This document shows, piece after piece, positions 3,563 to 46,935 of a DNA stretch of 64,000 nt. A program made the position numbers and the translations under genes. The notes under the pieces were generated by a model. That model saw nothing but the letters and a program-made list of their open reading frames with translations, made no database searches and was not told where the DNA came from. The stretch's first letter is position 1; each line of letters starts with the position of its first letter. The stretch spans positions 1 through 64,000 of the forward strand of contig JABWBP010000001.1 of assembly GCA_013360445.1 (NCBI GenBank), read 5' to 3'. This DNA is from Calditrichaceae bacterium (GTDB lineage: Bacteria; Calditrichota; Calditrichia; RBG-13-44-9; J075).

Positions 3563-4222
3563 ATGCTAACCCTCTACCTGGCGTGTTTGATTTTCGGGGG
3601 CGTTTTTATCATCGTCTCCCTGTTCTTCGGGTCGGATGCGGACGCGGACGTGGATACCGGGGGAGATTTGCATTTCGACAGCGGCGGGGATGCCCATTTC
3701 GATGCCGGAGGGGGCGGCCACGACGTCCATATCGATTCATCCGCCGGCGCCGACGTTCACCACGGGGAAGGCTTAGCCGAGACGATCAAATTCCTCAGCC
3801 TGCGGAATATCGTTTTCTTCATCGCTTTTTTCGGCCTCACCGGAACGGTGCTGACCTGGCTGGGGGCCTGGCCGGTCTTCAGCTTTCCCGTCGCGCTGGG
3901 AATGGGTTTTTTCTCCGCCGCCCTGATGCACAAAGCCCTGCGCTACCTGGTAAAAACCGAGGTGAGCGGCGGGGTAAACCTGGAAGATTTATCCGGCCTT
4001 TCCGCCAAAGTCCTCATCGATTTGTCGAAAAACCAACGCGGCAAAATTTCCCTCAAAACCGGGGGCCAGTTTATGCAGTTGCTGGCCCTGGTTGCGGACG
4101 TCTCCGGCCGGCAAGCATTTAAAGCCGGCGAAGAAGTGATTATCTTAGAAGTAAAGAACGGCCTGGCGTACGTGGTGGAGAAGGAGTTTATTTTCCAAAG
4201 AGAGGGGGGAGGGAATGCGTAA
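3563..4222 (+). CDS. NfeD/YqiJ-like membrane protein with a C-terminal OB-fold domain, partner of flotillin
   Basis: An N-terminal TM helix is followed by an Asp/His/Gly-rich low-complexity loop, two more TM helices and a C-terminal OB-like beta domain (KVLIDLSKNQRGKISLKTGGQFMQLLALVAD...EVIILEVKNGLAYVVEK). It sits immediately upstream of the flotillin gene. ATG at 3563 has aaggaa upstream. Confidence 0.7.
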   Translation: MLTLYLACLIFGGVFIIVSLFFGSDADADVDTGGDLHFDSGGDAHFDAGGGGHDVHIDSSAGADVHHGEGLAETIKFLSLRNIVFFIAFFGLTGTVLTWLGAWPVFSFPVALGMGFFSAALMHKALRYLVKTEVSGGVNLEDLSGLSAKVLIDLSKNQRGKISLKTGGQFMQLLALVADVSGRQAFKAGEEVIILEVKNGLAYVVEKEFIFQREGGGNA

Positions 4223-4335
4223 AACGTAAGGCGTAAAGCGTAACTTTGGGGGGGTTGCGTATTTCGTATTGCGTATTCCGCTTCTTACGCATTACGTTTT
4301 ACGAGTTACGCAATACGCTTCCCCCTCTTTCATTG
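4205..4335. repeat. CGTAA/TTACG-type foldback repeat flanked by G-rich and C-rich clamps
   Basis: agaggggggagggaa tgcgtaaaacgtaaggcgtaaagcgtaac ... ttacgcattacgttttacgagttacgcaatacgc ttccccctcttt. The arms are tandem GCGTAA-like units and their complements. The last NfeD codons and its stop lie inside this element. Confidence 0.75.
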
Positions 4336-4373
4336 TCAAAAGCTTCCATACATTTCACAAGGAGATTCAACTT

Positions 4374-5921
4374 ATGGACTTTATCGTTGCAACGCTGTTT
4401 ATCGCTATTATTGCCGTGATCATCATCGGTATGTTTATCAGCCGGTTTTTGTTGATTTGCCATCCCAACGAGGTGATCATCCTTTCCGGGCGGAAGCGCA
4501 AACTGCCCGACGGCAGCGTGGTCGGCTACCGGCTGATTCGCGGCGGGCGGGCCATCCGCATTCCGGTGTTAGAAAAAGCCGCCCGCATGTCCTTAGAAGT
4601 TATCCCCCTGGAATTGAGCGTGCACAATGCCTATTCCAAAGGCGGCATTCCCCTGAACGTGGAAGCGATTGCCAACGTCAAGATCGATTCCACGGAACCG
4701 GCCTTCGGCAACGCGGTGGAGCGTTTCCTGGCCAAGCCGCTGGCGGAAATCCACAAAATCGCCAAAGACACTTTAGAAGGGAACCTGCGCGGGGTGCTGG
4801 CCACTCTTACCCCGGAAGAGGTGAACGAAGACCGCCTGAAATTCGCCCAGAGCCTCATCGACGAGGCGGATAACGACCTGAAACAGTTGGGATTGCAGCT
4901 CGATACCCTGAAAATCCAGAACGTTTCCGACGAAGCCGGTTACTTAGATTCCATCGGGCGGCGCAAGACCGCGGAAGTTCTTTCAGAAGCGCGCAAGGCC
5001 GAGGCGGCCCGGGCGGCGGACGCGGAGCAGGCCGAGGCGGAATCGCGCCAGCAGGCGGAAATCGCCAAGGCCCGGGCGGAACAGGAGATCAAAGCGGCGC
5101 AGATCGACGTGCAGCGGGAAGTGAAAACCGCCCAGGCGATTGCCGACGCCGCGGCCCGCAAGGCGGAAGCGGACCAGCGCGCCCAGGCGGAAGAAGCCGA
5201 GGCTGCCGGAAAAAAACGCGCCGAAGTGGCCCGCACCCTGGCCGACCAGGAAATCCAGATGGCGCAGATCAACCGCGACCGGGAAGTGAAGGTCAACCTG
5301 GCGCAGGCGGGGCAAAAAATCGAGATCGAAAACAACAGCCTGCGCATCAAAAAAGCAGAGCTGGAGCGCGACGCGGTGATCAAGGAAAAGGAAGCGGAGG
5401 TCGCCGGGCAGAAAGCCAAGGCCAAATTCGAGCAGGATATGGAGCAGGAGCGCATCATTCTGCAGCAAAAGCGCTTGATGGCCGACGTCATCGAGCCGGC
5501 CCGCGCCAAAAAAGATGCCCTGGAATTAGAAGCCAAAGGCGCCGCCGCGCCGATTCTGGAAAAAGGAAAGGCCAATTTGGAAGTGCTCCGGCAAATGATT
5601 ACCACTTACCAGAGCGCCGAGGGCGAAGGCGACAGGGTGTTCATGCTGAACATGCTGCCGGATATCATCAAACAATTGGCCGAAACGGTGAACAAGGTGA
5701 CCATCGACAAGGTCAGCGTGATCGACAGCGGTTCCGGGAACGGCGCCGGCCTGGGACGGTTCATCAACCAGCTTCCCGCGGCGGTAATCTCCCTGGCGGA
5801 GCAGATCGAGAACGCCACGGGGGTGAATATTCTCAGCCAGTTCCGGCACAATCAAGATGAGCCAACGGGCACTCCCCGGAAAGGCAAGACAAAGCCGGAT
5901 GGGCAGGGAAAAGCAGTATGA
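4374..5921 (+). CDS. Flotillin / SPFH (band 7) domain protein, YqiK/FloT-like
   Basis: An N-terminal TM helix is followed by an SPFH domain (IRGGRAIRIPVLEKAARMSLEVIPLELSV...NVEAIANVKIDS) and a long Ala/Glu/Gln-rich coiled coil. ATG at 4374 has aaggag 10 nt upstream. It is paired with the NfeD-like gene. Confidence 0.88.
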   Translation: MDFIVATLFIAIIAVIIIGMFISRFLLICHPNEVIILSGRKRKLPDGSVVGYRLIRGGRAIRIPVLEKAARMSLEVIPLELSVHNAYSKGGIPLNVEAIANVKIDSTEPAFGNAVERFLAKPLAEIHKIAKDTLEGNLRGVLATLTPEEVNEDRLKFAQSLIDEADNDLKQLGLQLDTLKIQNVSDEAGYLDSIGRRKTAEVLSEARKAEAARAADAEQAEAESRQQAEIAKARAEQEIKAAQIDVQREVKTAQAIADAAARKAEADQRAQAEEAEAAGKKRAEVARTLADQEIQMAQINRDREVKVNLAQAGQKIEIENNSLRIKKAELERDAVIKEKEAEVAGQKAKAKFEQDMEQERIILQQKRLMADVIEPARAKKDALELEAKGAAAPILEKGKANLEVLRQMITTYQSAEGEGDRVFMLNMLPDIIKQLAETVNKVTIDKVSVIDSGSGNGAGLGRFINQLPAAVISLAEQIENATGVNILSQFRHNQDEPTGTPRKGKTKPDGQGKAV

Positions 5922-6068
5922 CGAGGCTTTTCCGTCGAGCACGCTACAATCACAGCGAGTAAAGAGGTATTTCCAACCCATTCCCGGCCTTGATTTAAGC
6001 GAGAGGTTATCGTATTTTCGCATACCTGCCCGGCGACGGGGAGGATGCCCATTTAACGGAGGATTGCC

Positions 6069-6413
6069 ATGGAATTCTTGAAAAAACTTGCCTTGTTCGC
6101 GATACTGCTTTTAATATTAGGATGCGCCGGGGCCACCAAAGTACGGGACCTCAACGCCAATCCCCAGAAATACAACGGAAAAGTGGTGACCGTTAAAGGG
6201 CGGGTCATCGAGAGCTATTCTCTGCCCATCATCTCCTTCGGAGTGGCGCGCATCGACGACGGCAGCGGAGAAATCTGGGTGAAACCGCACGACCGCAGTT
6301 TTTTCGAGGGAGAAAAGGTGACCGTGAAGGGGGTGCTCAAAATCGGGATGACCCTGGGGAGCAAATCCTTCGGGTACATGGTGGTGGAAGAGCCGAAGGA
6401 AAAGAAGAAGTAG
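6069..6413 (+). CDS. Small lipoprotein with a predicted OB-fold (BOF/YgiW-like)
   Basis: Signal peptide with lipobox LILGC, then KVVTVKGRVIE...GEKVTVKGVLKIG, which looks like a beta-sandwich or OB pattern. Basic tail KEKKK. Confidence 0.5.
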   Translation: MEFLKKLALFAILLLILGCAGATKVRDLNANPQKYNGKVVTVKGRVIESYSLPIISFGVARIDDGSGEIWVKPHDRSFFEGEKVTVKGVLKIGMTLGSKSFGYMVVEEPKEKKK

Positions 6414-6427
6414 AACAAGCGGAAGAG

Positions 6428-6640
6428 CGGAAAAACAACTTAACTGATGTTACGCATTTTACCACATGGTTCGATAAACTCACCATGCAAAAGACACGGT
6501 GAACACAGAGTTTGCTTAGTGTTTTTTGCTTCAGCGCAGTCTCAAGTGCAATATATTTGATTTCCTCTGTGCTCTCCGTGGCTCTGTGGTTAATCTATTT
6601 GACTTGCATAACATCAGTAACTGAATGGCAAAATAATTCA
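6428..6640. mobile_element. MITE-like element copy A, ~180 bp, with terminal inverted repeats ACTGATGTTACGCATTTT ... TGCATAACATCAGT
   Basis: Termini aactgatgttacgcatttt and gcataacatcagtaact are near-perfect inverted complements. Internal inverted cacagag/ctctgtg motifs are present. A second copy with the same termini lies at 13448-13625. Confidence 0.65.
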
Positions 6641-6644
6641 AAAA

Positions 6645-7718
6645 TCATTTTGCCATTTCAAGATTAAACCCCAGCCCCGGCAGACCTGTGGGATAGAGAA
6701 TCCCGTCTTTCAGGATTACCGCCCCGGCGGAGGGATCGTCGAGCAAATCGAAGTGCCCGTCTAAGTCCGCGTAGGCCACGTTGGGGCGCGCCAGGGCAAA
6801 ATGCAGCCCCGCGGCAATGCCCAACGCCGCCTCGTCCATGCAGCCGATCATCGCTTCCAGTCCCGCGGAGCGCGCCACCGCGTTGATCATAAGCGCCTCG
6901 GAAATCCCCCCCACTTTCATCAGCTTCACGTTCACCATGTCCACTAAATCGTGCTTGGCCAGGCGAAAGGCGTCGCGCAGGTTCATCAGGCTCTCATCCG
7001 CCATCACCGGAATGTGAACCCCGCTGGTTACCCGCCCCAGCCAGTCCGGCTCCACTTTGGCGGTGGGCTGCTCGAAAAGCTCCAGTTTCGCCGAGCGGGT
7101 CGCTTCTACGAAATGCAGCGACTGCTCCACGGTGTAACCCTGGTTGGCGTCGAAACGCAGCTCGATGGGGGGACCCACCGCTTCGCGCACTTTTAATACC
7201 CGCTCGATGTCCGATTCCACGTCCGCCCCGCCCTTGAGTTTGAGGGATTTAAACCCCCGCCCCACAAATTCCCGGGCTTTTTCCAGCGTCTCTTGCAGGG
7301 GAAGAATGCCGATGGTAATGCTGGTGATCATCCGGTCGCGGAAACCGCCTAAGATTTTCCAGAGCGGGATGCCGGCGGTTTTCCCTAACAAATCGTACAG
7401 CGCCATGTCCACCGCCGCCAGGGCGGAGGGATGATTGGGCATGTGTTCCTTCAGGCGCTCTAACAGCAGCACCGGGCGCAGGGGATCGGAGCCGCTAAGA
7501 TTGGGAACCGCGATCTCTCCCAGGGCGGCTACCACGCCCGCGGGCGTTTCGCCGGTCACCTGTAAATCCGGCGCGGCGCAGCCGAAACCGTTCAGGCCGG
7601 TATTGGTTTCCAGGCGCAGAAAAATATTGGCGGTGGAGTCGATGGTCTCGTAGGCAATGGTATAAGGCTCCGCCAGGCGCATCTCCACCAGCCAGAATTC
7701 GAGGCGTTTGATTCTCAT
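6645..7718 (-). CDS. Dipeptide epimerase of the enolase superfamily (L-Ala-D/L-Glu epimerase, mandelate racemase / muconate lactonizing enzyme family)
   Basis: MR/MLE-family motifs are present, including the KLKGG and FDANQGYT metal-ligand regions and the MADESL and [14 protein letters not shown] blocks. Start is placed at MRIKRLEF (ATG 7716-7718). The longer 424-aa track ORF would read through the upstream hairpin repeat. Confidence 0.82.
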
Positions 7719-7737
7719 GGGGTCTGCTTTCCGTATC

Positions 7738-7832
7738 AGGGCAGAGCGCAAAGGGCATAGGGCATGGCGCATAGAGCAGAGCACGACGTTTTTTCTCTGC
7801 GCTCTGCTCCATGCGCCATGCGCTCTGCGCGT
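7738..7832. repeat. Long hairpin with a TTTTTT loop (stem gcagagcgcaaagggcatagggcatggcgcatagagcagagc / gctctgctccatgcgccatgcgctctgcgc)
   Basis: The inverted repeat is directly visible at 7740-7830. It shares the gcgcatggcgcat unit with the patch at 1238-1262. It sits between the epimerase start and the creatininase stop and could act as a terminator or insulator. Confidence 0.65.
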
Positions 7833-8644
7833 TAATACCGCAACTGGTACAACTCTTCTAAGCTCATGCTCTTTAACTCCTCGACCAGGTTGACCAGGTG
7901 CTCGATCATGGTTTCCCACATTTTCGCTCCTTTTTCGGCGTTAGCTTTGGTGGGATCGCCGATCACGCCGCTGGAGGAAATCCGGGTGGTGTACGCATAC
8001 CAGGAAATCCAGCGCTGGGCGGTAAAATTCAGGTAACGAATGGAAAACTTCGGCACTTCCTTTTTCGCCAGCGCCATTTTGACCAGGTGCGGGCGCAGGG
8101 CCAGGGCGGTGCTGGTTTCGATCTCCCCGGCGTGGATGTCGTTAGGAGTGTCGATCATCCCGTAAATATCCACGTCGCTGGTCTCCCCGCTGTCCACTCC
8201 CACGAAAATGCGCTTTTCGCGGTTGATCTTCTGGGCGGCAAAATTCAAGGCCGGGCCGTTGCCCCCGTGCCCGTTGATGATGATCAACTTTTTGATCCCG
8301 TTGCGCGCCGCGTTGATGCCGATCTCATAGACCAGTTGCGCCATGGTTTCGTTGCTGATGCTGATGGTTCCGCTGAAATCATCGTGCTGGTAGGAAACCC
8401 CGTAGGGGATCAGCGGCAGAACCAGCGGTTTGGGGTCGCTGCACCGCGCCGCCACCTGGCGGGACAGGTAGTCGGCGTCGAATGCGTCGGTATCCAGGGG
8501 CAGGTGAGGGCCGTGCTGCTCGATGGCGCCCACGGGCAGCAGCGCCACGTCCACTTCCGCAAAGCGTTTTTTCGCTTCCGGCCAGGTCAATTCGCCGAGA
8601 AGGTAGCTCCGGGCGGCAGCGGATGGTTTATCTTTTTCTTCCAT
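7832..8644 (-). CDS. Creatininase-family amidohydrolase (creatinine amidohydrolase / MftE / ArfB-like metal-dependent hydrolase)
   Basis: Family signature [11 protein letters not shown]...IINGHGGN...HAGEIETS, with its metal-binding His, Asp and Glu residues, is present. Confidence 0.8.
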
Positions 8645-8654
8645 GGATATATTT

Positions 8655-9060
8655 CTCCTTAAAAGTATAGCTCATTGGGGTCATTTGTTGTCATTTGCGC
8701 TTCGCGCGTCATTTATTGTCATTTACTTTGCGTCATTGGTGGTCATTTGCCCGTTAGGTTGGGGCGTTGCCGGAACTGCGCACGCCGTTGGAATGACGCT
8801 AAAGGTAAAATGACCACCAATGGCGCGTGAAACGCTATACTTTACGCGGTCTTAAATTAGACTTTTTAAAGAGGATGTACACTTGATTGCACTCATTCGT
8901 TTTCCACACGCTGAAGCGTGGCAATCAAAGATTACCTCACTTCAGTGAGGAATGCCCCCCCTCAAAAGTCTCATTAAATCCCGCGCGAAGTATAATGACG
9001 ATGAATGACGCGAAGCAAATGACACCGGAGGTAAATGACGCGAAGCCAATGACAAGAAAT
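8655..9060. repeat. GTCATT/AATGAC-type foldback repeat, two blocks separated by ~150 bp that contains small hairpins
   Basis: Left block is ggtcatttgttgtcatttgcgcttcgcgcgtcatttattgtcatttactttgcgtcattggtggtcatttgcc. Its complement is aatgacgctaaaggtaaaatgaccaccaatggcgcg. A second block at 8990-9055 is ataatgacgatgaatgacgcgaagcaaatgacaccggaggtaaatgacgcgaagccaatgac. Confidence 0.85.
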
Positions 9061-10578
9061 TCAATGGGAATGCGCCCCGCCGACCGGGTCGAACTCGCTC
9101 CAGCCCCGGCCATCAAAGCGCAGGGCGCCCCGGGCGTGCTCTAAATAAAGCCGGTGGAGCGGGGTACGGAGATCTTCCGGGATGGTTTCCGGGGGTGATT
9201 TTTCCGGGTGGAAACGCAGGTGCAGCACTTCGGGGTGCGGGGCCAGCGCGGTTTTTCGTTCCGCGGGCAGGTTGATCAATTCTTTTTCCATCAGCATCCA
9301 AAGGAGTTGTTGAAAACCTTCTTCTTCCTGGTGGATGCCTTTTTGCCCCAATTCTTGCAGGGAATGGGTAATTTGCGCGGGCGTGTAACCGCAGCGGGCG
9401 GGATCGGCGCCGAGCGCCTTGAGCATTCCCACGATGCGGCGGCATTTCTCGCACCTGCCGCAGGGATGCACCCGCTCGCCTTTTTTGTGAGCGGCGTGGC
9501 AAGAAACCTGCTGCGCCTGCAAGTGCGGGTAGCGCTCTACCAGGATTTTCTCGATCAGCAGCTCCGAGAGCGGGCGCAGCAGGGAAAACTGCCGGATGCC
9601 CCAGCCTTTTTGCCGGAAATAAGCGCTCAGCGCCTCGTCGAAGTAGCGGCTCTGGTCGTACAGCCCGTCGTAGTGCGCGATGCCGCGGAAATTCTCCCGC
9701 ACCGTGGTATCGTATTCGTCGCCGATGATCAAACGCCCGAGGCCCCGCTTGCGCATCAACGGCAGCGCCCCGAAGAGGAACACCGCCACGGTCCAGAGGC
9801 GGATGGGGTACATATCCGCCCGCAGCCGGGCAAAATCCGGGCGAATGAAGGGAAGATGGCGCTTCATCCGGGAAAATACCCGGTCGCTGTTCATCCACAC
9901 CCGCCCGGTGTTGGGGACGTTGGCCTTGAAGTAGCGGTAAGCGTTGAGGGCGGTGAACCAGTGCCGCCCGGATTCGTTCCCGAAGACCGGGTGAGCTTCG
10001 CAGCCCAACTCGTTCAGCAGTCCGAAGCTGAGCAGGCTGTCTTTTCCGCCGCTGGAGAGCACCAGGTAGCGGGATAGGGATTTTCGATTTTCGATTTTTG
10101 ATTTGCGATTTCCTATTTTCGGATTTCGGGTTGCAGATTCTTCATCGGGGAAAAGCAGCTTCGACTGCAAGTAGCTTTTGGGGCGGATTACCGGCAGATT
10201 TGCCGCTTCGCCGATCAAGAAAGGGTTGGGGTGCAGAAACTTCTTCACGTAGATTTCGCAGGCGGTGTTATCGGCCATTTCGATCAAAAACTGCCGGTCG
10301 GCGCCATCGTAGCTGCCGCGGAAAACGATCTCCTCGCAGAACAGGCCGTAGTTGAGCGCTACCTGGGCGGCAATCATATCCGCCAGGTTCTGCGCACCCG
10401 GGTCGGCGGGATCGAACACCGGCTCTTCGTAGCGGTAGATTAAGTCGATGGAATCGGTTTTGCCGTTTCTGATAACCGTGTACGGCGCCACCAGCCGTTT
10501 CGCCTCCAGCCCCACCGGCCCGATTTCCAGGCGGTCGATCACTTTTAGTTGGGAAAGAGGATGGTCAGTTCGATTCAT
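9061..10578 (-). CDS. PP-loop ATP pyrophosphatase superfamily (adenine-nucleotide alpha-hydrolase) enzyme with a ~170-aa N-terminal extension and a C-terminal Cys cluster
   Basis: Contains LVLSSGGKDS (the SGGxDS PP-loop) and the C-terminal HPCGRCEKCRR (CxxCxxC), as in TtcA, QueC or amidotransferase-like members. I cannot assign a specific family from sequence alone. Confidence 0.65.
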   Translation of the reverse strand: MNRTDHPLSQLKVIDRLEIGPVGLEAKRLVAPYTVIRNGKTDSIDLIYRYEEPVFDPADPGAQNLADMIAAQVALNYGLFCEEIVFRGSYDGADRQFLIEMADNTACEIYVKKFLHPNPFLIGEAANLPVIRPKSYLQSKLLFPDEESATRNPKIGNRKSKIENRKSLSRYLVLSSGGKDSLLSFGLLNELGCEAHPVFGNESGRHWFTALNAYRYFKANVPNTGRVWMNSDRVFSRMKRHLPFIRPDFARLRADMYPIRLWTVAVFLFGALPLMRKRGLGRLIIGDEYDTTVRENFRGIAHYDGLYDQSRYFDEALSAYFRQKGWGIRQFSLLRPLSELLIEKILVERYPHLQAQQVSCHAAHKKGERVHPCGRCEKCRRIVGMLKALGADPARCGYTPAQITHSLQELGQKGIHQEEEGFQQLLWMLMEKELINLPAERKTALAPHPEVLHLRFHPEKSPPETIPEDLRTPLHRLYLEHARGALRFDGRGWSEFDPVGGAHSH

Positions 10579-10672
10579 GCGGTTGATATACCACGTTTGA
10601 TGAATACGTTGGGTTTAGCGTAAAATGATGATCTTTGACAAATGAATCGGGCTACCCTTGTTCTAAGCACCC

Positions 10673-10692
10673 TGTCAAACTGAAGTTTGACA
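10673..10692. promoter_or_regulatory. 20-bp palindrome TGTCAAAC-tgaa-GTTTGACA, copy 1, upstream of the PP-loop gene
   Basis: Sequence is exact at 10673-10692. It sits about 80 bp upstream of the PP-loop gene start, in the gap after the DUF1611 stop. Confidence 0.6.
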
Positions 10693-10747
10693 CTCCTGGT
10701 TTCTTCTGCTACTCGAAACTGGTAACCCAAAACTCGTAATTCGCAAC

Positions 10748-11824
10748 TTACTTTGCCAGATACGGCTTCAGCACTTCCACCAACTCCCCCGCCCCGAATT
10801 TGAGCACGTCAAATGCCGGCAGGCCCACGGCTTTCTGGATCGCGTCGCAAACTAAGGGAATTTGCTCGTTGGGCAAGTCTTCGTGGTTGATGGTGATCGC
10901 TGCCACGGGTTTGCCGGAGAGCAATTCGACCACCTGGATTTGCTTCGCCAGGGGATGGATGGGATAGCCGGGGAACCCGTCGTAATCCCTGCGCGCCGGG
11001 GCGTGCTGCAGAATGACCAGGTCCGGGCGTCCCCCGGCGAGAATCTCGAATCCCCCGGGATAGGCGGGGTTCATCAAGCTGCCCTGCCCTTCGATGACGA
11101 TCACCTCCGGCTGCGCCTCTTTCCAGGCGCTCCAGACCACGTGTTCGATCTCCCCGGAAACGAAATCGTTGACCAGCGAATCCATGATGACGCCGTAGCG
11201 CGCCCCCTGCATCCAGGCGGTCTGGCCGGTGCCCACCATCTCCGCTTTGTAGCCCGCCTCTTCCAGCGCCTGCACCAACAGCCAGGCGGTGGTGCGCTTG
11301 CCCACCGCGGAATCGGTTCCTAACAAGGCGATTTTCAAAGAAGCAACCTGCTCGATCTTGCCGCTGAAGAAATGCAAATTCTCCCGCGCCGGGGGTTTGC
11401 GCACGTCGCGGATGGCCGCGCCGGATTGCTGTGCAAGCTGCACAATTTCTTTATCTTCAGACAAAAAGTCGTGCAGCCCGGAATCCACGTTCAAGCCCAG
11501 GCGGAGCGCTTTTTTCACGTCATCCCGGGCGGCCAGGCTCAGGCGGCCCCCGTCCGGCGCCAAACCGATTACAAAATTGTTGGCGGGAGCGCCCCGCTCC
11601 TGCCCCAATTGAACGGCCTCCTCCAGGGTTGCGCATACCGGAATGTCTTTTTCCCGGCCGTCTAACACCTTCCCGGCGTCGCGGCCTTTGTAGCGGGAAT
11701 CGATCACCGCGATGACGTTATAGCGCCGGGTGAAGCGCACCAGCCCGTGGGCGGTTTTTCCGTTGGGAGTATTGAACGCGCCTTCACAGTACACAATCGC
11801 GTTGCCGTCAATTGCATTACTCAT
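10748..11824 (-). CDS. DUF1611-family protein (DgcN-like; frequent genomic partner of dipeptide epimerases)
   Basis: Conserved DUF1611 blocks IALLGTDSAVGKRTTA and VIVIEGQGSLMNPAYPGGFEIL. Start is placed at MSNAIDG (ATG 11822-11824) with aggaga upstream. The track start at 11881 is a TTG codon inside the palindrome. Confidence 0.7.
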   Translation of the reverse strand: MSNAIDGNAIVYCEGAFNTPNGKTAHGLVRFTRRYNVIAVIDSRYKGRDAGKVLDGREKDIPVCATLEEAVQLGQERGAPANNFVIGLAPDGGRLSLAARDDVKKALRLGLNVDSGLHDFLSEDKEIVQLAQQSGAAIRDVRKPPARENLHFFSGKIEQVASLKIALLGTDSAVGKRTTAWLLVQALEEAGYKAEMVGTGQTAWMQGARYGVIMDSLVNDFVSGEIEHVVWSAWKEAQPEVIVIEGQGSLMNPAYPGGFEILAGGRPDLVILQHAPARRDYDGFPGYPIHPLAKQIQVVELLSGKPVAAITINHEDLPNEQIPLVCDAIQKAVGLPAFDVLKFGAGELVEVLKPYLAK

Positions 11825-11875
11825 ACGATTCTCCTGGTGTACCTTTGGGTTTGCAAGCGCTGAGGCTTTTAGGAG

Positions 11876-11895
11876 TGTCAAACTTTAGTTTGACA
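11876..11895. promoter_or_regulatory. 20-bp palindrome TGTCAAAC-ttta-GTTTGACA, copy 2, inverted flank orientation, ~50 bp upstream of the DUF1611 start
   Basis: ggagtgtcaaactttagtttgacagc. Its flank ggagtg is the inverse of the cactcc flank of copies 1 and 3. Confidence 0.6.
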
Positions 11896-12228
11896 GCGGC
11901 CGATCCCGGATCGTCGCATCGGCGTAAAACCTCAGACTATTTGCCAGCAATTTCAGGCCGCACTCGTTCCCAAACTCTGTTTGGGAACGGAATCATTCCC
12001 GAAACTCTGTTTCGCTTCCCGGTAAACAAGCCGCATGCTGCGCAATTCATGTTCTCGAAACAAAGTTTCGAGTGTTAGTGCGTTCCTATCCCGGCTAAGC
12101 CGGGATGAGAACGAGACTGGTAGTCGAATGTTCACCGAAACCGCTCAGGTTTACGCCTATGCGGACCGCCAGGATACCAACAGCGCAGGATCGTGAAAGT
12201 TGATAAAACAATCATATCCCTGCGGTCT

Positions 12229-12248
12229 TGTCAAACTGAAGTTTGACA
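12229..12248. promoter_or_regulatory. 20-bp palindrome TGTCAAAC-tgaa-GTTTGACA, copy 3
   Basis: cttgtcaaactgaagtttgacactcc, identical to copy 1 including the flank. It lies between the ThrC-like stop and the DUF1611 start. Confidence 0.6.
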
Positions 12249-12310
12249 CTCCGGCGTTGCTTTCCTTTTTCCTCTTGCCTTTTTCCTTTTCCCCTTGACA
12301 GCCAGCCGGA

Positions 12311-13429
12311 TCACGACTTCCTCCCGGTCAGGAGCACTACGTAGCGGTCGTTGGGCAGGGGTTGCTGGCGGTGCTGCTCTACTAAGGCGATCAATCCCGC
12401 GGTGGAGGCGGGCAGTACGTTCAAACCCTCCCGCTCGCGGAGCATTTTGGAAAAGACCAGCATGTTCTTATCGCTGGCGTTGGCCGCCCAGCCGTTGGTC
12501 TGGCGGATGGCCGCCAGCGCGTAGTCCCCGTCGATGGAGTGCCAGTTGATCAGCGGCTCGTTGATCATGGTTTCCCGGATTTGCTGCGGGGCGAGATCTT
12601 CGCAAGTGGGCGTATTCTTCAAAAACGCCTGCACAATGGGATTTTTGTTATAAGAAGAACCTGCCACCATTTTGGGGATGCGGGAGGTCTTCCCGCGGCG
12701 GTAGAGGCTGACAAATCCGCGGTAAACCCCCGCTAAGGTAGTGCCGTTGGAGACCGGGGCGACCACCACCGCCGGGGCGTCGCTCAATTCGTCGTAGATT
12801 TCGTAGGCGATCTCCCCGTAGCTTTTCAATTGCAAGGGGGTATTGGCGCCCCCGGGATTGGCGTCGTAAACCTCGTTTTTCTCCGCGTATTCCTGGGAGG
12901 CGTACACCGCCGCCTCATAATCGCCGGGCACACGCAGGATTTCCGCCCCTAAGTCGGTCATTTCCTTTACCCGCCCGGTGCGGAATTCTTCGGGGATGAA
13001 CACCACGCAGCGCAGCCCCGCCACCGAGGCGGCCAGGGCCATGGCTACCCCGTAGTTGCCGCAAGTGGCCATGGTGATGGTATCGAAATTCCGGCGCAGG
13101 GCATCCATGGCCTGGGCAAAAGCGATGCGGTCTTTCTGGGTTCCGGTAGGATTGCCGCCTTCGAATTTGAGGTACAATTGCCGGAACCCGAATTCCCGCT
13201 CGATATTGCGCGCCCGGCTGAGGGTAGTATCGCCCACTTCGCACTCGAAAACGTCCTCGTAGGCTTCCAACCGTTCTTCTAAGTCGCGGGAGCGATCCGA
13301 GGCGATCTTCCACTGGTCTTCGATCTCCCGGGCCACCAGGGCAATCTCGCCCTCCGCGCCGTCGAGCAGATCGATGAGTTTTTCGTTATCTATTTGCGGA
13401 TCGTTTTGCGGCTTCGGGACGTTCTCCAT
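12311..13429 (-). CDS. PLP-dependent fold-type-II enzyme, threonine-synthase-like
   Basis: GGNPTGTQKDR matches the PLP-lysine region of threonine synthases (LNPTGSFKDR), followed by a Gly-rich PLP phosphate loop. About 70 aa of acidic N-terminal extension. Confidence 0.7.
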   Translation of the reverse strand: MENVPKPQNDPQIDNEKLIDLLDGAEGEIALVAREIEDQWKIASDRSRDLEERLEAYEDVFECEVGDTTLSRARNIEREFGFRQLYLKFEGGNPTGTQKDRIAFAQAMDALRRNFDTITMATCGNYGVAMALAASVAGLRCVVFIPEEFRTGRVKEMTDLGAEILRVPGDYEAAVYASQEYAEKNEVYDANPGGANTPLQLKSYGEIAYEIYDELSDAPAVVVAPVSNGTTLAGVYRGFVSLYRRGKTSRIPKMVAGSSYNKNPIVQAFLKNTPTCEDLAPQQIRETMINEPLINWHSIDGDYALAAIRQTNGWAANASDKNMLVFSKMLREREGLNVLPASTAGLIALVEQHRQQPLPNDRYVVLLTGRKS

Positions 13430-13447
13430 GATGCTCCTCCATTAATT

Positions 13448-13625
13448 ATAGAACTGATGTTACGCATTTTCACACAGAGGCACAAAGATCACAGAGTTTT
13501 GACCAACATTTTCAAATTTGGATTTCTCAAAGTGCTCTAAAACTTACTGAATGTTTGAGTTTCTCTGTGCCTTCTGTGTCTCTCTGGTTAATTTTTTCAA
13601 CCCGCGTAACATCAGTTATAGAAAA
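13448..13625. mobile_element. MITE-like element copy B, same family and orientation as 6428-6640
   Basis: Termini gaactgatgttacgcatttt and gcgtaacatcagttatag, with internal cacagag/ctctgtg repeats. Together the two copies bracket the five-gene minus-strand cluster 6645-13429. Confidence 0.65.
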
Positions 13626-13905
13626 CTCAACCCCTTCCGTAGCCGGCGCTCGGGCGCTCCCCCCGGGAGAAGTTCGTGCTCCCCGGGGACTTACGGTGAG
13701 TATAACACCCCCAATCTCACCGGTGCAAGGAAAGATTTTCCTTTGTTGGGAAAGGGACAAGCCACTTCTTCGGAGCACTCCTGTTGTGCAATTTGACATG
13801 CGCCTTCACCCGGAGCCGGAAAGTATTTGGATTTGCAGAACTTGCAAAAATTCCTTATTATCGACTGTCGCCAAATAAAAAGCAGTGAACTACGGAGGAG
13901 TTTTC

Positions 13906-21494: not shown

Positions 21495-21700
21495 TGAACC
21501 ATCCGGGTATTCCGCCTCGTTCCGCCGCCATTGCGCTTCGCTGTTACTTGCCTTCGGCGTCATTGGGGCTTCGCAGGTCATTCGTTGTCATTTGCTCACT
21601 CCTGTCGGAGCTTTGCGTCATTAATTGTCTCTCAAGGCAATAAATGACCATTAATGGCGCCGAAGGCAAATGACGGCGCAGCCCCAATGACGCGCAAAGC
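21495..21700. repeat. GTCATT/AATGAC-type foldback repeat
   Basis: Left arm is cggcgtcattggggcttcgcaggtcattcgttgtcatttgctcactcc. Complement is aaatgaccattaatggcgccgaaggcaaatgacggcgcagccccaatgacgcgcaaagcgc. Confidence 0.85.
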
Positions 21701-21785
21701 GCATTTGCGGTAATTTTTTTCTTGCTTCATCTTTTTCTTTTGGATAGGTTGCCTCGCACGTCGGTTACTTCTTTGAGGTAAAAGT

Positions 21786-25159: not shown

Positions 25160-25365
25160 TTCTCCTGAGTTTTTGTCATTGGCTGCGCGGTCATTTGCCT
25201 GCGGCGTCATTGGCGCTTCGCGCGTCATTGCGCTTCGCGGTCATTGGCTGCACCCGTCATTTAGGTTGCGATCAATGACAACGAATGACAGCGAAGCAAA
25301 TGACAACCAGTGACAGCGCAGCGAATTGAGCGCAGCAAATGACGCCGTAGGCAAATGACACTATT
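25160..25365. repeat. GTCATT/AATGAC-type foldback repeat between permease paralogs 1 and 2
   Basis: Left arm is ggtcatttgcctgcggcgtcattggcgcttcgcgcgtcattgcgcttcgcggtcattggctgcacccgtcattt. Complement is aatgacaacgaatgacagcgaagcaaatgacaaccagtgacagcgcagcg...aaatgacgccgtaggcaaatgac. Confidence 0.85.
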
Positions 25366-27748: not shown

Positions 27749-27774
27749 GGAATCCTCCGGGGAAATTTGGTCAT

Positions 27775-27960
27775 TTGCCTGCGGCGTCATTAGGGCTTCG
27801 CCCGTCATTTCGGGAAAAATGACCCGCGGCGCGTGCCCTTACGACATGGGAAAGCACAAATGACTCCCCACGTTGAGGGAAAATGACACCCAATGACGCG
27901 CGAAGCGCAAATGACGGCGAAGCCAAATGACAACTAATGACACGCGAAGCGCGAATGACT
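27775..27960. repeat. GTCATT/AATGAC-type foldback repeat between permease paralogs 2 and 3
   Basis: Left arm is ggtcatttgcctgcggcgtcattagggcttcgcccgtcatttcggg. Complement is aaatgacacccaatgacgcgcgaagcgcaaatgacggcgaagccaaatgacaactaatgacacgcgaagcgcgaatgac. Confidence 0.85.
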
Positions 27961-31261: not shown

Positions 31262-31520
31262 GTTCCTTCGTATCTTGACCTGTAGTGCTAGTTGGTTTAA
31301 ACCGCGAATACACGCGAATAAACGCGAATAACTATAGGATCAAGAACGGCCGAAATTAGTGTTTATTCGCGTCAATTCGCGGTTAGATCGAGTGTCCGTT
31401 GGTAGAACTAGCACTACAGGTATCTTGGTATCTTGGTATCTTGGTGTCTTGGTGTCTTGGTGTCTTGGTGTCTTGGTGTCTTGGTGTCTTGGTGTCTTGG
31501 TGTCTTGGTATCTTGGTGGC
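31262..31520. repeat. Composite repeat: foldback of tandem CGCGAATA units inside a 15-bp inverted clamp (cctgtagtgctagtt / aactagcactacagg), then (GTRTCTTG) x12 tandem 8-mers
   Basis: cgcgaatacacgcgaataaacgcgaataac ... gtttattcgcgtcaattcgcgg, then gtatcttggtatcttggtgtcttgg... at 31426-31515. Confidence 0.8.
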
Positions 31521-33574: not shown

Positions 33575-33629
33575 GAAATTTCTCCGCAAGTAACACCAAC
33601 CGGCGCCGCGAAAGGAGTGCTCCAAAGGA

Positions 33630-33649
33630 GTGCAAAATTTATTTTGCAC
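33630..33649. promoter_or_regulatory. Perfect 9-2-9 palindrome GTGCAAAAT-TT-ATTTTGCAC in the divergent region between the transporter operon and the two-component operon; candidate enhancer/activator site
   Basis: The sequence is exact. Its TGCA...TGCA half-sites resemble NtrC-type upstream activator sites. Function is inferred, not shown. Confidence 0.35.
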
Positions 33650-35401: not shown

Positions 35402-35530
35402 GGGGGGCGGGGGAATGCGTAGTGCGTATTGCGTAAAACGTAACACGTGATGCGTAAAAAAACGGAATACGCAATACGCACCACCGTAACAGTTGCGCAT
35501 TACGTTTCACGCATCACGTTTTACATTCTT
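35400..35530. repeat. CGTAA/TTACG-type foldback repeat (same family as 4205-4335), G-rich clamp gaggggggcggggga
   Basis: gaatgcgtagtgcgtattgcgtaaaacgtaacacgtgatgcgtaaaaaaacggaatacgcaatacgcaccaccgtaacagttgcgcattacgtttcacgcatcacgttttacat. Confidence 0.75.
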
Positions 35531-35536
35531 TTGCCC

Positions 35537-36898: not shown

Positions 36899-36934
36899 GA
36901 AAACGGAAGCATGGGGCAGCGGTAGAGACGTTGC

Positions 36935-37100
36935 ACTGCAACGTCTCAGGGGCAGGGCAGTATAAAATTGCCAATTGGCAATCAGCAATTGACAATTGCC
37001 AATTATTAAGGGGGCAGGGGGAAAGACGGGCATGATCGGGCAAACTCTTCAGCAATAGTTGATGAACTCTTCAGCAAGAGTGGGGTAACTCTTCAGCAAG
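36935..37100. repeat. Palindrome-rich patch (ttgccaattggcaa, caattg) then 4x direct ~20-nt repeats aactcttcagcaagagtNgg
   Basis: Directly visible: ggggcagggcagtataaaattgccaattggcaatcagcaattgacaattgccaattatt, then caaactcttcagcaatagttgatgaactcttcagcaagagtggggtaactcttcagcaagagttgggcaactcttcggcg. Confidence 0.7.
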
Positions 37101-37102
37101 AG

Positions 37103-37423
37103 TTGGGCAACTCTTCGGCGTTTTGGGGGGGAATGCGGTACGGGAGGGTGACAAAAAAATTGTGCTGGGGGTCGATTAAAAGCATTTTCAGGGAGCGATT
37201 TTCTGGTTATATTTATACTGCCTTGCCTGGCGTTCTGATAATACCGGCAACAATCGTTCAGAGATCCTCCGTTGAGGAACGCGTTCGGAAAATTCTAAAT
37301 AATTCTTCATCTTCCGATGTCTCTCGTCTTGAGCAAGAAATTGACCAATTGGTGCATCAACTCTACGGCCTGAGCGAGGTGGAGATACGGATAATAAAAG
37401 GAGAATCAAATCATGCCCGATGA
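37103..37423 (+). pseudogene. Probable C-terminal remnant of a type IIG restriction-modification or BREX-type N6-adenine methyltransferase
   Basis: The tail VEERVRKILNNSSSSDVSRLEQEIDQLVHQLYGLSEVEIRIIKGES matches the conserved C-terminal motif (...ID.lVY.LYGLTeEEI.IVE) of Eco57I/PglX-like enzymes. No methyltransferase catalytic domain lies upstream. Confidence 0.3.
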
Positions 37424-38541: not shown

Positions 38542-38864
38542 CGTTTTTTGCTTCTCCCGGGAATAGGTCAGGCCCCCTCGATCTCCGGGAGAATTTATTC
38601 TCCGGCCGGGAAAGATTCAACCGCTAATTTGAATCTGCCGCCAGCAACCGCCCGGGAGGGGGTTATCGTTTAAAAACCGTTGCGTTATCTCTCTCGACAT
38701 CCTATTTTTGCCAGTTGTTTGTGGTTCGTTGTCCGTTGTTGGCGGCGGGGCGCTTCGGGCGGGTGAGTTGGAAGGGATTTGCAGTCTTTTTATTAACCGA
38801 TATTACACATTACGGATTACGCAATACGCATTAGATAGACATCCAAATCAGGAGTTATTACCCC

Positions 38865-41821
<2,957 letters not shown>

Positions 41822-41822
<1 letters not shown>

Positions 41823-41960
41823 GGGCGAAGCATTCTGAAAATAGCCGATAATTTCCGGCAAAAATCTAATCCAGAATGCTTCGCCCGTACCAGGGGCGAA
41901 GCATTCTGAAAATAGCCGATAATTTTCTGAAGAAATCGTCTTCAGAATGCTTCGCCCCTT
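41822..41960. repeat. Tandem duplicated ~60-nt stem-loop (ggggcgaagcattctg ... cagaatgcttcgccc x2) between convergent secA and the response regulator; likely bidirectional terminator
   Basis: Two near-identical copies of ggggcgaagcattctgaaaatagccgataattt...cagaatgcttcgccc. Each can form a 15-bp stem. Confidence 0.65.
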
Positions 41961-43346
41961 CTAAGGCCGGTGAATCTCCAAATCCCGCATCTTGCGGAAC
42001 AGGTTGGTGCGGTCGATGCCTAAGGCGCGGGCGGTTTCGGTAATTTTCCAGCTAAAGCGGTTCAGCGTTTTTATGATATAATCTCTTTCAAAGCGGGCGG
42101 AGGCTTCCCGCAGCGGCTCCGGCTCTTTTTCCGGGACTGCCCCGGCTGCCGCCGCGAAGGGCGGTTTTTCATCCAGCCGCTTTAGCACCTCCTCCACTTT
42201 GATCTCCGTTCCCTCGCTCAAAACCACCAGCCTCTCTATAACATTCTTTAATTCCCGCACGTTCCCCGGCCAGGAATAATTCACTAACACCGACTCCGCC
42301 TGACGGTGAAGGGTCCACACCCGGCGGTTATTTTCCTTGTTGAATTTTTTCAGAAAATGGTAGGCCAGGGGCAAAATATCTTCGCGGCGCTCCCGCAGGG
42401 GCGGAACGTAGAGCGAGATCACGTTCAGGCGGTGGTACAAATCCTCCCGGAATTTATCCGGCAGCATTTTTTTGAGATCCCGATGGGTGGCGGCGATGAT
42501 GCGCACGTTCACCGGCTGAAAAAAATCTTCTCCTAAGCGCATCACTTTTTTATCATCCAGGACGCGCAGCAATTTGGCCTGGAGATGAATATCCAGGTCC
42601 CCGATCTCATCCAAAAAAAGCGTTCCCCCGTTCGCCGCTAAAAATTTCCCCTTGCGGTCGTGATTGGCGCCGGTAAAAGCGCCCTTGCAGTAACCGAACA
42701 GCTCGCTTTCTAACAGTTCGTGGGGCAGGGCGGCGCAGTTCAGGGTAATATAGGGCTGGTTGCGGCGGTTGCTGTTCTGGTGGATGGCGGAAGCGATCAG
42801 TTCCTTGCCCGCGCCGCTTTCCCCAAAAATCAGCACCGTGGCTTCAGTAGCGGCAATTTTGCGAACTTCGTTGACCAGGTTTTGCAAGGCGGGGCTTTTC
42901 CCGATGATCAAATCGTTCTGCGGCAATTCTTCATAAAGGGTTTCCTTTTCCAGCCGGTCTAACATCAGCCGTTGCCGTTCCAGGGCTTTATGGATCGTTG
43001 CGGCAATCTTTTCCGGGTCGATGTTGCCGGACTTTTCAATAAAATCATAGGCTCCCAATTTCAGCGCCTGCACCGCGGAAGCAATAGTGCTGGCCCCGGA
43101 AACGATAATCACCGGCAGCAGCGGGTTGGCCGCCAGCGCCTGGCGGAGAAATTCCAGTCCCCACTCTTTCTGCGTATTCATCTCCATATCCAATAACAGG
43201 CAGCGGTAATCCCGGCGCTGTAACGCCGGCGGCGCCTCTTCCGGCTTGCTGAGCGTATCCACCGAGAAACCCCGCAGGGTTAAACTCTTTTTAAGGGTTT
43301 TACAAAAATTTTCATCATCGTCTATGAGTAAAATGTGGGGCTGCAT
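41961..43346 (-). CDS. Sigma-54-dependent response regulator (REC + AAA+ + HTH, NtrC family)
   Basis: Receiver ILLIDDDENF...CLLLDMEM, Walker A GESGAGKE, GAFTGA motif, and the C-terminal HTH ITETARALGIDRTNLFRKM. Confidence 0.88.
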   Translation of the reverse strand: MQPHILLIDDDENFCKTLKKSLTLRGFSVDTLSKPEEAPPALQRRDYRCLLLDMEMNTQKEWGLEFLRQALAANPLLPVIIVSGASTIASAVQALKLGAYDFIEKSGNIDPEKIAATIHKALERQRLMLDRLEKETLYEELPQNDLIIGKSPALQNLVNEVRKIAATEATVLIFGESGAGKELIASAIHQNSNRRNQPYITLNCAALPHELLESELFGYCKGAFTGANHDRKGKFLAANGGTLFLDEIGDLDIHLQAKLLRVLDDKKVMRLGEDFFQPVNVRIIAATHRDLKKMLPDKFREDLYHRLNVISLYVPPLRERREDILPLAYHFLKKFNKENNRRVWTLHRQAESVLVNYSWPGNVRELKNVIERLVVLSEGTEIKVEEVLKRLDEKPPFAAAAGAVPEKEPEPLREASARFERDYIIKTLNRFSWKITETARALGIDRTNLFRKMRDLEIHRP

Positions 43347-44555: not shown

Positions 44556-44782
44556 AGCGGGCAGGCCGCCATTTAGGAGAGGAACGGGGCTTTCCGGTAA
44601 GGGGTAGCCCCGTTTTTATTTTGCTAAACAGGGGTGGATTCGAAAGGATTCAAAACCGCGCGCCGGAGTTGCAATAAAGTTTCACAGTCATGGATGAATG
44701 GTTTGCACGACTGATGCGAATCATCAATTACCACCCTCCAATACTCCACTAATCCAACACTCCAACAATCCAAGACTCCCGT

Positions 44783-45811: not shown

Positions 45812-45879
45812 AGAGCAGTCTCCTGAGCGGGTGCGGCGGGGGGTTGGAAGAACCGGGAACCAAAAACCAGGAGGAGTGG

Positions 45880-45990
45880 CTCAGGTAATTTTTCTTACCT
45901 CTCTGATTCTTGGCTCCTGTCTCTTGCTTCCTGCTTCTTGATTCTTAACTCTTGATTCTTAACTCTTGATTCTTAATTCTTGACCCTTTC
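45880..45990. repeat. Tandem direct repeat, ~14-nt unit ctcttgattcttaa x5-6 (pyrimidine-rich)
   Basis: ctgtctcttgcttcctgcttcttgattcttaactcttgattcttaactcttgattcttaattcttgaccc. Confidence 0.75.
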
Positions 45991-45998
45991 CCCGGCCG

Positions 45999-46784
45999 CT
46001 ATGGCGTTTTTGAGGTATCGGCGGCGACGGAATCCCGGGGCGCGGTGGAGGCCGGCGTGCCGAGCGCGCCGGCTCCGCTCTCTAACTCCAATAGAGATTC
46101 CGGCGTGGTAGTTGTATCCTCGGGCAACAAGCCCTGCTGCTGGTACTCCAGGCGGCGGCGCTCCCGCTCCCGGATGTCTAAAATATTTTGCTCCGCCCGC
46201 AAGGACCATTCCGTGCCCTGGTAGGCATTAATAGCAGTTTCGTAAGCTTCAATCGCCTTGAGGTTATCTTTCAGTTTTTCATAGAGCGTGCCGATCTTGA
46301 ACTGCGCAAAACTCTTGGCGTTCAGGTCGTCGCTGTTAGGGTATTGAATGGATTTGTTATAATAATTGATTGCGGTTTTGTAATCGTTGCTCCCTTCCCC
46401 GGTGATCTGCTCGGAAATGCCGGCGCTCCGTTCATAAAATTCCGCGATGGCATTATAAACCCCTGGCACTTTGGAGGGGATCAGGTTCTCCCGCAGCAAT
46501 CCGTAAAGAATCTCAAACTGCTTTTCGTAACTCTGCAAGGCCCCGTAGCACTTGCTCAGCCCGATGGCGGCGTCGATATACTCGCGGCTGGTGGGATACT
46601 CGTAATAAATGATCCCGTAGGCCCGGAAGGCGTTCTCATAATCCCCGCTTTGATAGAATTGGTCGCCGTACTTCAGCAGTTGAGAAGGTTTATCATCTTC
46701 TGAAATCACGCTGCGCACTTCTTTTTTGCCGCATGAAGCAATCAGCAGCGCCAGCGCGCCAAGTATCAAAATCCACAAACGCAT
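45999..46784 (-). CDS. TPR-repeat lipoprotein (BamD/YfiO-like outer-membrane assembly lipoprotein candidate)
   Basis: Signal peptide plus lipobox LIASCG, and TPR-like helices (YGDQFYQSGDYENAFRAYGIIYYEYPTSREYIDAAIGLSKCY...). The C-terminus is low-complexity. Confidence 0.55.
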   Translation of the reverse strand: MRLWILILGALALLIASCGKKEVRSVISEDDKPSQLLKYGDQFYQSGDYENAFRAYGIIYYEYPTSREYIDAAIGLSKCYGALQSYEKQFEILYGLLRENLIPSKVPGVYNAIAEFYERSAGISEQITGEGSNDYKTAINYYNKSIQYPNSDDLNAKSFAQFKIGTLYEKLKDNLKAIEAYETAINAYQGTEWSLRAEQNILDIRERERRRLEYQQQGLLPEDTTTTPESLLELESGAGALGTPASTAPRDSVAADTSKTP

Positions 46785-46794
46785 TATTACCCTC

Positions 46795-46935
46795 CTGAAG
46801 TGGGTTATTGCGGTTTTCAGGTGTTTGTGTGTTCAGGTGTTCATGTATTCGTGTTATAGTTCAATTATAGAATCCCGCTCCTGAACACCAATACACCTGA
46901 ACATAAGAACACATAAACACCTGAACACACAAACA
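46795..46935. repeat. Foldback repeat built from tandem CAGGTGTT / AACACCTG units
   Basis: caggtgtttgtgtgttcaggtgttcatgtattcgtgtta ... ctgaacaccaatacacctgaacataagaacacataaacacctgaacacacaaacac. Same architecture as the GTCATT and CGTAA families, but a different unit. Confidence 0.75.

Follow-up and report, generated by a model that had tools for sequence, protein, structure and literature searches.

The first 64,000 nucleotides of contig JABWBP010000001.1 (assembly GCA_013360445.1) from a Calditrichaceae bacterium, referred to here as the window, raise the question of why foldbacks of a single plan, with short tandem units on one arm and the complements of these units on the other, recur between genes with entirely different unit sequences. 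A sequence-only reading of the window had described several such elements and suggested either a common generating mechanism or selection on structure rather than on sequence. We found several unrelated families of non-coding, hairpin-forming elements of approximately 100-240 nt, which are confined to intergenic DNA. We interpret them, with a probability of roughly 60%, as palindromic repeats that are dispersed and probably selfish, and in which slippage, together with correction between the two arms, turns the arms over. The SecA protein of the window is 96% identical to that of another metagenome-assembled genome, 80-83% identical to those of several uncultured relatives and 67% identical to that of Caldithrix abyssi, the latter value placing the organism in the class Calditrichia.

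Unrelated foldback families in the window

The window was scanned for tandem repeats and inverted repeats, a check which the sequence-only reading had proposed for the whole genome. All of the elements that it had named were recovered within a few bases of their expected positions, and E, F, five GTCATT elements as well as one-armed and one-directional arrays were added. Twelve foldbacks were counted, namely the secA 3' repeat described below and the following elements:

3296-3530, unstranded: A1, GTCATT foldback with a 16-nt unit composed of GTCATT and a GC-rich mini-hairpin
8680-9058, unstranded: A2, GTCATT foldback with a nested insertion resembling a miniature inverted-repeat transposable element (MITE)
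21515-21705, unstranded: A3, GTCATT foldback
25173-25359, unstranded: A4, GTCATT foldback
27769-27960, unstranded: A5, GTCATT foldback
4199-4331, unstranded: B1, foldback of (N)CGTA(W)N heptamers in the spacer between an NfeD-like and a flotillin-like gene
35405-35536, unstranded: B2, second full copy of the CGTAA family, in the spacer between genes for a sigma-54 response regulator and a histidine kinase
31278-31421, unstranded: C, 16-bp non-periodic outer stem (ACCTGTAGTGCTAGTT/AACTAGCACTACAGGT) around an inner foldback of CGCGAATA units
46801-46939, unstranded: D, foldback in which TTCAGGTG/TTTGTGTG octamers face their complements, the arms being unit-for-unit mirrors
7733-7838, unstranded: E, foldback of GCAnRGn heptamers (GCAGAGC, GCATAGG, GCATGGC) in the creatininase / MR_MLE spacer
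63032-63247, unstranded: F, internal hairpin of 162 nt flanked by 25-nt terminal arms, which consist of CGCAAAGA/CGCTAAGA octamers and are complementary at 96%

Foldback loci were defined as at least four copies of a 5-mer followed by at least three reverse-complement copies within 260 nt. Eight such loci were counted in the window versus a mean of 0.05 in 40 block shuffles, while 1.5 per 64 kb were counted in control DNA, which comprised 1.39 Mb of loci of other phyla (SecA at most 57% identical among the matches listed). Each element was also folded as single-stranded DNA and compared with 200 dinucleotide-preserving shuffles, none of which folded as well as B1 (z -5.5), B2 (z -4.3), C (z -8.1), D (z -5.6) or E (z -6.1). 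The periodicity of the arms was scored against 500 shuffles and revealed periods of 7 for B1 and B2 (p~0.002 each), 8/16 for D (p~0.002), 7/14 for E and 8 for F (both p 0.002-0.004), and the 16-nt periodicity of the A1 arm was higher than in almost all shuffles. Three of the Bacteroidota control loci (L028 17575-17819, L069 4076-4336 and L075) contain clusters of a 5-mer and its complement with 4-5 copies each, which may be similar elements.

Element C had been described as a foldback of tandem units. This holds for its inner part, which has a period of 10 and arms that are periodic on the left (p~0.002) and on the right (p~0.024), but it consists of only three CGCGAATA units and two complements, and the periodicity of the surrounding outer stem did not exceed that of the 500 shuffles.

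Relatedness was determined by all-versus-all local alignments in both orientations, with z values calculated against shuffles. B1 and B2 (z 33) belong to one family, as do A1 to A5 (pairwise z 10-39). Across families, every z of all element pairs lay within shuffle noise. C, D, E and F are unrelated to one another and to families A and B, and at least seven unrelated unit cores with four different periods (7, 8, 10 and 16) are present in 64 kb, in agreement with the claim of one architecture with unrelated unit sequences. Diverged copies of one MITE, chance or assembly artefacts would be an alternative explanation for all elements. Nothing beyond the shared architecture speaks for a single MITE, and the cross-family scores at shuffle level, the eight loci compared to 0.05 and the failure of any shuffle to fold as well leave this explanation with a negligible probability. 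Furthermore, an independent Logan assembly (L002) is 100% identical to the window over 10.4 kb without any micro-variation, and the same elements exist in related strains; they are thus not products of assembly.

Family B was analyzed at the level of single units. The left arm of B1 contains four (N)CGTAAN heptamers, its G-rich apex three CGTAT units and its right arm five TTACG-type units. The CGTA core of the heptamer is conserved, while the spacers of 2-3 nt vary and are often mispaired across the stem. B2 contains a mixture of CGTAA, CGTAG, CGTAT and CGTGA units. Clamps of poly-G and poly-C had been assigned to both elements. Such a clamp exists in B1, a G-run/C-run (GAGAGGGGGGAGGG / CCCCCTCTTTC), but not in B2, where a G-run is present, whose partner, CATTCTTTTGCCC, is not a C-run. 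A supposed partial copy near 38790-38830 is indeed an array of family B units (B3; z of approximately 4 in the alignment with the family), but it has only one arm, and the region 38760-38850 does not form a hairpin (z -0.55).

The secA 3' repeat (41815-41967; 6008-6150 in the related contig L083) comprises two 71-nt units, each with a 19-bp hairpin (AGGGGCGAAGCATTCTGAA…). Its arms are non-periodic, and on the minus strand the central hairpin is followed by a T-run. The MITE-like element within A2 (8836-8994) possesses 31-nt inverted termini (TATACTTTACGCGGTCTTAAATTAGACTTTT…), and its arms are not tandem arrays either.

In addition to the foldbacks, the window contains the following arrays and fragments:

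1229-1270, + strand: one-armed array of the E type, GCAGAGA GCATGGC GCATGGC GCATGGC
1377-1434, + strand: one-directional array of eight CTTTGCA units
31419-31518, + strand: one-directional array of 12.5 GGTGTCTT units abutting C
37124-37140, + strand: probable remnant of family B, resembling its left terminus (GGGGGGGGAATGCGGTA) as read from the sequence
38720-38746, + strand: array of GTTGTCN heptamers, with three more units in L083
38802-38833, unstranded: B3, array upstream of secA with a single arm, composed of ATTACGC units as on the right arm of family B
45904-45983, + strand: one-directional array of 11 TGATTCT units

The two heptamer arrays at 1229-1270 and 1377-1434 precede a gene of the PD-(D/E)XK_3 family (1428-1976), of which a second copy was not found among the loci fetched. 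A repeat of 3.5 units of 22 nt, each forming a mini-hairpin (AACTCTTCAGCAAGAGTT), is located at 37038-37116 and adjoined by a self-complementary array of AATTGCC/AATTGGC heptamers (36966-37004). Two arrays, 4.6 units of AAATCCG (52302-52333) and 6.7 units of GATTTTC (10079-10126), lie within long called open reading frames. Either these reading frames were called too long, or arrays occasionally occur in coding sequence.

Dispersal, gain and loss, and unit turnover in relatives

Family B is represented in the window by two full copies and two fragments, and a B-like CGTGA/CGTA hairpin was identified at a different locus in L085. AAATCCG foldbacks of L111 and L143 are 95% identical over 81 nt within unrelated flanks. 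An exact 22-mer of the GTCATT family was found in 69 metagenome stretches together with 38 GTCATT foldbacks and nine clusters of other units; by eye, the latter include AAATCCG/ATTTCGG foldbacks and one GTTTCAG/CAGGTTT foldback. The same 22-mer did not match any of the viral contigs scanned. The recurring families have in common not only their units but also non-periodic parts, e.g., clamps and apex sequences. With respect to the common generating mechanism that the sequence-only reading had offered, slippage is visible as differences in unit number and a complementary change of both arms was seen at one locus, but the B, GTCATT, AAATCCG and D-like families and the E unit recur at non-homologous loci and thus are dispersed repeats, not each generated on the spot.

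This recurrence also bears on the possibility that each foldback arose in situ, a tandem array growing by slippage and then being inverted-duplicated by template switching without any mobility. One-directional arrays are abundant beside the foldbacks, C and F were single-copy in all data seen, and the two arms of D, of E and of F are mirror images down to the single unit. C likewise has its unit variants in mirrored order, B1 does not, and such an order matches the expectation from inverted duplication or from arm-to-arm templating. In situ formation of each element is nevertheless very improbable, since families B, GTCATT, AAATCCG and the D-like family share their non-periodic parts at non-homologous loci.

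Elements have been gained or lost between relatives. The spacer between the TPR and the amidohydrolase gene measures 161 nt with D in the window versus 19 nt in L084. Relatives with a SecA identity of approximately 80% lack D, the TGATTCT array and the secA 3' repeat and have short spacers or a normal terminator instead, and in close relatives the junctions without an element have spacers of just 19-80 nt. The TGATTCT array is missing from the matching spacer even in a relative whose TPR protein is 96% identical. At the site upstream of NfeD, three lineages carry a GTCATT element and L096 an AACACTA/AACACCTGAACA (D-like) element. Larger segments differ as well: a five-gene block (6414-13884; MR_MLE, creatininase, DUF1611, PALP and others), which holds E and A2, is missing in L096, and a block of low GC content (48308-53814; GC 0.37-0.46) with genes lacking Pfam matches and one FlgD_ig protein is missing in L084/L085.

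Differences within arrays frequently comprised whole units. The GTTGTCN array differs in length by 21 nt (3x7) between the window and L083, two AAATCCG copies by a 14-nt double unit, and a strain with a 99% identical NfeD has one more 16-nt GTCATT unit. Between contigs that are 99.4% identical, three indels of at least 5 nt were detected, two of which are single heptamers. L083, whose SecA is 96% identical to that of the window, also carries a 24-nt insertion inside the ATTACGC array (2975-2998, aligning with window position ~38812), which may form a small hairpin (CCTTCGACAAGCTCAGGGTAAACT) and had no second copy in any sequence compared. Small dispersed repeats have been described within the heptamer arrays of cyanobacteria, and the insertion is reminiscent of them.

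The spacer between the NfeD-like and the flotillin-like gene contains an element of the B type in all four lineages studied (NfeD identity 78-99%). Compared with the window copy, the B1 region of L093 and L096 retains an identity of only 42-55%, as opposed to 76-91% for the next spacer and 94-95% for coding sequence. The strength of the hairpin varies between the orthologues, with z values of -9.5 in the window, -10.7 in L092, -5.1 in L093 and +0.6 in L096, in which it is lost. The next spacer, after the flotillin-like gene (5922-6068), is conserved in relatives (76-91%), unlike the spacers that bear repeats, and may serve a 114-aa gene as its leader or as a regulatory region.

The left arm of L093 (GCGTGAAACGTGAGGCGTGAAG) differs from that of the window (GCGTAAAACGTAAGGCGTAAAG) solely by A/G at position 5 of every heptamer. 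Thus, CGTAA has become CGTGA in all three left units while the spacers were kept, and the right-arm units show the complementary change, TCACG in L093 versus TTACG/ATACG in the window. Such a periodic, complementary change is hard to obtain from independent mutations, though it was observed at a single locus. The unit arrays might also be binding sites for a DNA- or RNA-binding protein which reads a core of 4-5 nt per 7-8 nt, the hairpin being secondary. The conserved CGTA core of the B1 heptamers with its variable spacers and the alteration of the same core position in every L093 unit would suit this idea. However, the diversity of cores and periods within 64 kb, the mixed core variants inside B2 and the frequent occurrence of heptamer arrays with arbitrary cores in viral contigs argue against it, and no candidate binding protein was identified; we therefore consider protein-binding arrays a most doubtful explanation.

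Short-read Logan contigs of relatives (L091, L092, L093 and L096) begin or end at or inside the repeats; that of L091 begins 24 nt from the place of D in the window. These breaks are consistent with multi-copy repeats disrupting assembly.

Position of the elements and turnover of their arms

All elements and arrays together occupy 2.65 of the 8.95 kb of intergenic DNA (approximately 30%) and are found in 17 of 34 spacers. Outside of intergenic DNA, the unit motifs were restricted to three isolated matches, namely one to GTCATT and two CGCGAATA 8-mers. Of the twelve foldbacks, ten are located between co-directional genes and two between convergent genes. Eleven begin within approximately 25 nt of the upstream stop codon, with the conserved ribosome-binding region of the next gene on the far side; D, for instance, lies in the gap from the amidohydrolase stop codon to the TPR gene's ribosome-binding site. 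Such proximity to stop codons is expected if the spacers were originally only 20-40 nt long, as the 19 nt at the D site of L084 illustrate.

It had been stated that several elements supply the stop codon or 3' end of the upstream gene. This was confirmed for B1 and F, which contain the stop codon, and roughly for E, but in B2, D, A1, A2 and A4 it lies 1-6 nt outside the element. The TAA of NfeD (4220-4222) falls in the first GCGTAA unit of B1, so that the element contributes a six-residue tail (…QREGGGNA*), while the protein ends with …ER* in L093 and …ERPGGK* in L096. The right arm of F comprises the last codons and the stop codon of a TANGO2-like gene.

Most copies occupy the gap from a stop codon to the ribosome-binding site that follows, and transcription would therefore probably turn them into stem-loops of RNA between cistrons. 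By analogy with repetitive extragenic palindromic (REP) elements and the hairpins of cyanobacterial short tandemly repeated repetitive (STRR) elements, they may affect mRNA stability, processing or translational coupling, or they may simply be tolerated as selfish DNA. A function as terminators was rejected. A T-run does not follow B1, B2, C, D or E, and terminator-like sites were no commoner than in shuffles, the apex of B1 being the sole, weak match. Relatives carry canonical terminators with a GC stem and a T-run, e.g., after secA.

The foldbacks might have been selected as intra-operon RNA stem-loops, i.e., as barriers to 3' exonucleases, as processing sites for RNase III/E or as devices for translational coupling, with the structure being kept while the sequence drifts. 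Ten of the twelve are located between co-directional genes, where they directly follow a stop codon and precede a conserved ribosome-binding site; this would fit such a role, which has also been proposed for the STRR hairpins between hupS and hupL of cyanobacteria (PMC2670836). B1 has been retained at the NfeD-flotillin junction in relatives whose NfeD is 78-99% identical, L093 showing complementary changes, and its sense strand folds 23 kcal/mol better than the antisense strand (-70 vs -48 kcal/mol) through G-U pairs, of which there are eight. However, nine of the ten elements with a defined sense strand did not show a consistent sense/antisense asymmetry, the L096 orthologue has no significant hairpin, elements are missing at the same junctions in close relatives (spacers of 19-80 nt), and one-armed fragments persist. 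A search of the whole window against Rfam 15 at the gathering score also gave no match. Selection on structure, the second explanation of the sequence-only reading, is therefore weak as a general principle and unlikely to account for the elements, though it may act on individual copies.

We thus return to dispersed palindromic repeats with arms that turn over. Each family would spread to several loci as a whole foldback. In a settled copy, slippage of the 7-16-nt units during replication would then be the main source of change in the arms. Their likeness could be kept if one arm served as a template for correcting the other within the hairpin (template switching within a strand, cf. quasipalindrome correction), or else if pairing were under weak selection. 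The arms of the foldbacks are 80-96% complementary in the best register, 65-80% when slid by one unit and 14-29% out of phase. Since they pair nearly as well one unit off, gain and loss of units is tolerated and invited. If slippage and arm correction act on independent families, the shared plan would be the product of a process and not of common sequence ancestry.

Several observations weigh against this interpretation. In the window, neither a transposase, a RAYT nor another mobilizing gene was found (no transposase domain in the major open reading frames), and a clear target-site duplication was not discernible, with no direct repeat evident at the ends of B1, B2, D and the L111/L143 copies; F is flanked by low-complexity T-runs. 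C and F occur once each in all sequence reached, and these two may have originated locally. Whole-unit slippage does not predict the change in L093, as the unit-specific spacers stay. The advantage of the B1 sense strand hints at selection at the RNA level for at least this element. Finally, the data on this genome comprise one 64-kb window and fragments of relatives.

It is also conceivable, though improbable in our view, that an active, structure-directed process makes and homogenizes the foldbacks, rather than passive slippage. Two findings hint at it, the change at the same position in all units of both arms of L093 with the spacers kept, and the existence of one plan with arbitrary units in the genome, in metagenomic relatives and in viral contigs. 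Such a process might be short-tract conversion of units or arms in an extruded hairpin, or a structure-specific, sequence-independent copying between loci common to bacteria and phages.

Relation to known repeats and significance

Repeats of 7 bp in tandem are known from cyanobacteria as STRR sequences, which form hairpins, e.g., between hupS and hupL, and were suggested to influence transcript stability or translational coupling (PMC2670836); Calothrix heptamers are cited in PMC4692102. The elements of the window resemble them in their tandem units of approximately 7 nt in intergenic DNA, in the presence of several unit types per genome and in the possible hairpins between co-transcribed genes. 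They differ in phylum (Calditrichota), in their unrelated units and in periods of 8, 10 and 16 beside 7. Moreover, the foldback and not the one-directional array predominates here, and whole foldbacks are dispersed as units.

In Xanthomonas, arrays of GGGAATC heptamers exist in intergenic DNA, and each genome has 70-75 of them as convergent, opposite-strand pairs that are capable of forming stem-loops (Rehm et al. 2015; PMC4692102). These repeats vary in length by species but mostly remain of one type, either single or paired in inverted orientation, and heptamers are over-represented among bacterial simple repeats (PMC4692102). Intergenic heptamer arrays and inverted pairs are common to both systems, but the Xanthomonas repeat is one G-rich unit whose quadruplex potential was studied, whereas the window has at least seven unrelated units per 64 kb, most of which are not G-rich. 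Head-to-tail units, intergenic location at many loci, inverted pairing and variation in unit number, the hallmarks of hairpin-forming heptamers of the STRR and Xanthomonas type, were all found in the window or, for unit number, between related strains.

The REP, BIME and REPIN elements of proteobacteria are short intergenic palindromes, often just past stop codons in operons, for which roles in mRNA stability were proposed (PMC3116915, PMC3733652). Many dispersed copies, mosaic or nested arrangements and the position after the stop codon are shared features. REPs, however, are single palindromes of 20-40 nt with a conserved GTAG/CGTC end and a link to a RAYT (Y1) transposase, while the window elements measure 100-240 nt, have periodic arms and do not share a terminal tetranucleotide. 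With MITEs they have in common that they are small, non-coding and dispersed, that they have inverted ends (trivially, as the whole element is an inverted repeat) and that nesting occurs (8836-8994 in A2), but their arms are tandem arrays and not unique terminal repeats, and neither a target-site duplication nor a matching insertion sequence was found. Long inverted arms of short tandem repeats and structural dynamism are also known from Foldback/Galileo elements (PMC3573991), but these are eukaryotic, of kilobase scale and transposase-linked, and the likeness does not go beyond an architectural analogy. A single repeat has been described for the phylum, an 18-nt REP-like intergenic palindrome of Caldithrix abyssi, AACCGTTnnAACGGTT (PMC5317091), which is absent from the window and differs from its elements in sequence and size.

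Heptamer arrays were also detected in viral contigs, at 97 loci for the core CGTAA, 56 for GCATA and at least 120 for CTGAA. As the control cores GCATA and CTGAA gave comparable numbers, CGTAA was dismissed as a special viral unit. Among the matches listed, an in-phase inverted partner within 150 nt accompanied 9% of the CGTAA, 0% of the GCATA and 13% of the CTGAA arrays, and the association of CGTAA arrays with G-runs was weak (18% vs 8-14% in controls). Phage contig L359 carries three (GTTTTCA)4-loop-(TGAAAAC)4 foldbacks (1862-1920, 3888-3953 and 4882-4956), and in all three cases a ribosome-binding site and an ATG follow directly downstream. A clean heptamer foldback was identified in viral contig L217 (1496-1553) and a perfect CGTAA foldback in a phage contig other than L359. 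A supposed large element in L166 bounded by inverted CGTAA arrays resolved into phage genes of the ordinary kind (terminase and portal).

The architecture is therefore widespread and not peculiar to the Calditrichia genome; it has already been described in cyanobacteria and Xanthomonas but is little studied. Our data extend hairpin-forming heptamer repeats to a new phylum, in a genome where repeats fill approximately 30% of the intergenic DNA of the window, rewrite the 3' ends of genes, break the short-read assemblies of relatives and outpace the neighboring non-coding DNA. For annotation, the elements should be masked as repeats and not be taken for small RNAs, terminators or extensions of coding sequence. 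A single finding is puzzling, namely that the substitution at the NfeD-flotillin locus is periodic and complementary. This locus is compact and can be compared across relatives, and unit turnover and the co-evolution of the arms are traceable there.

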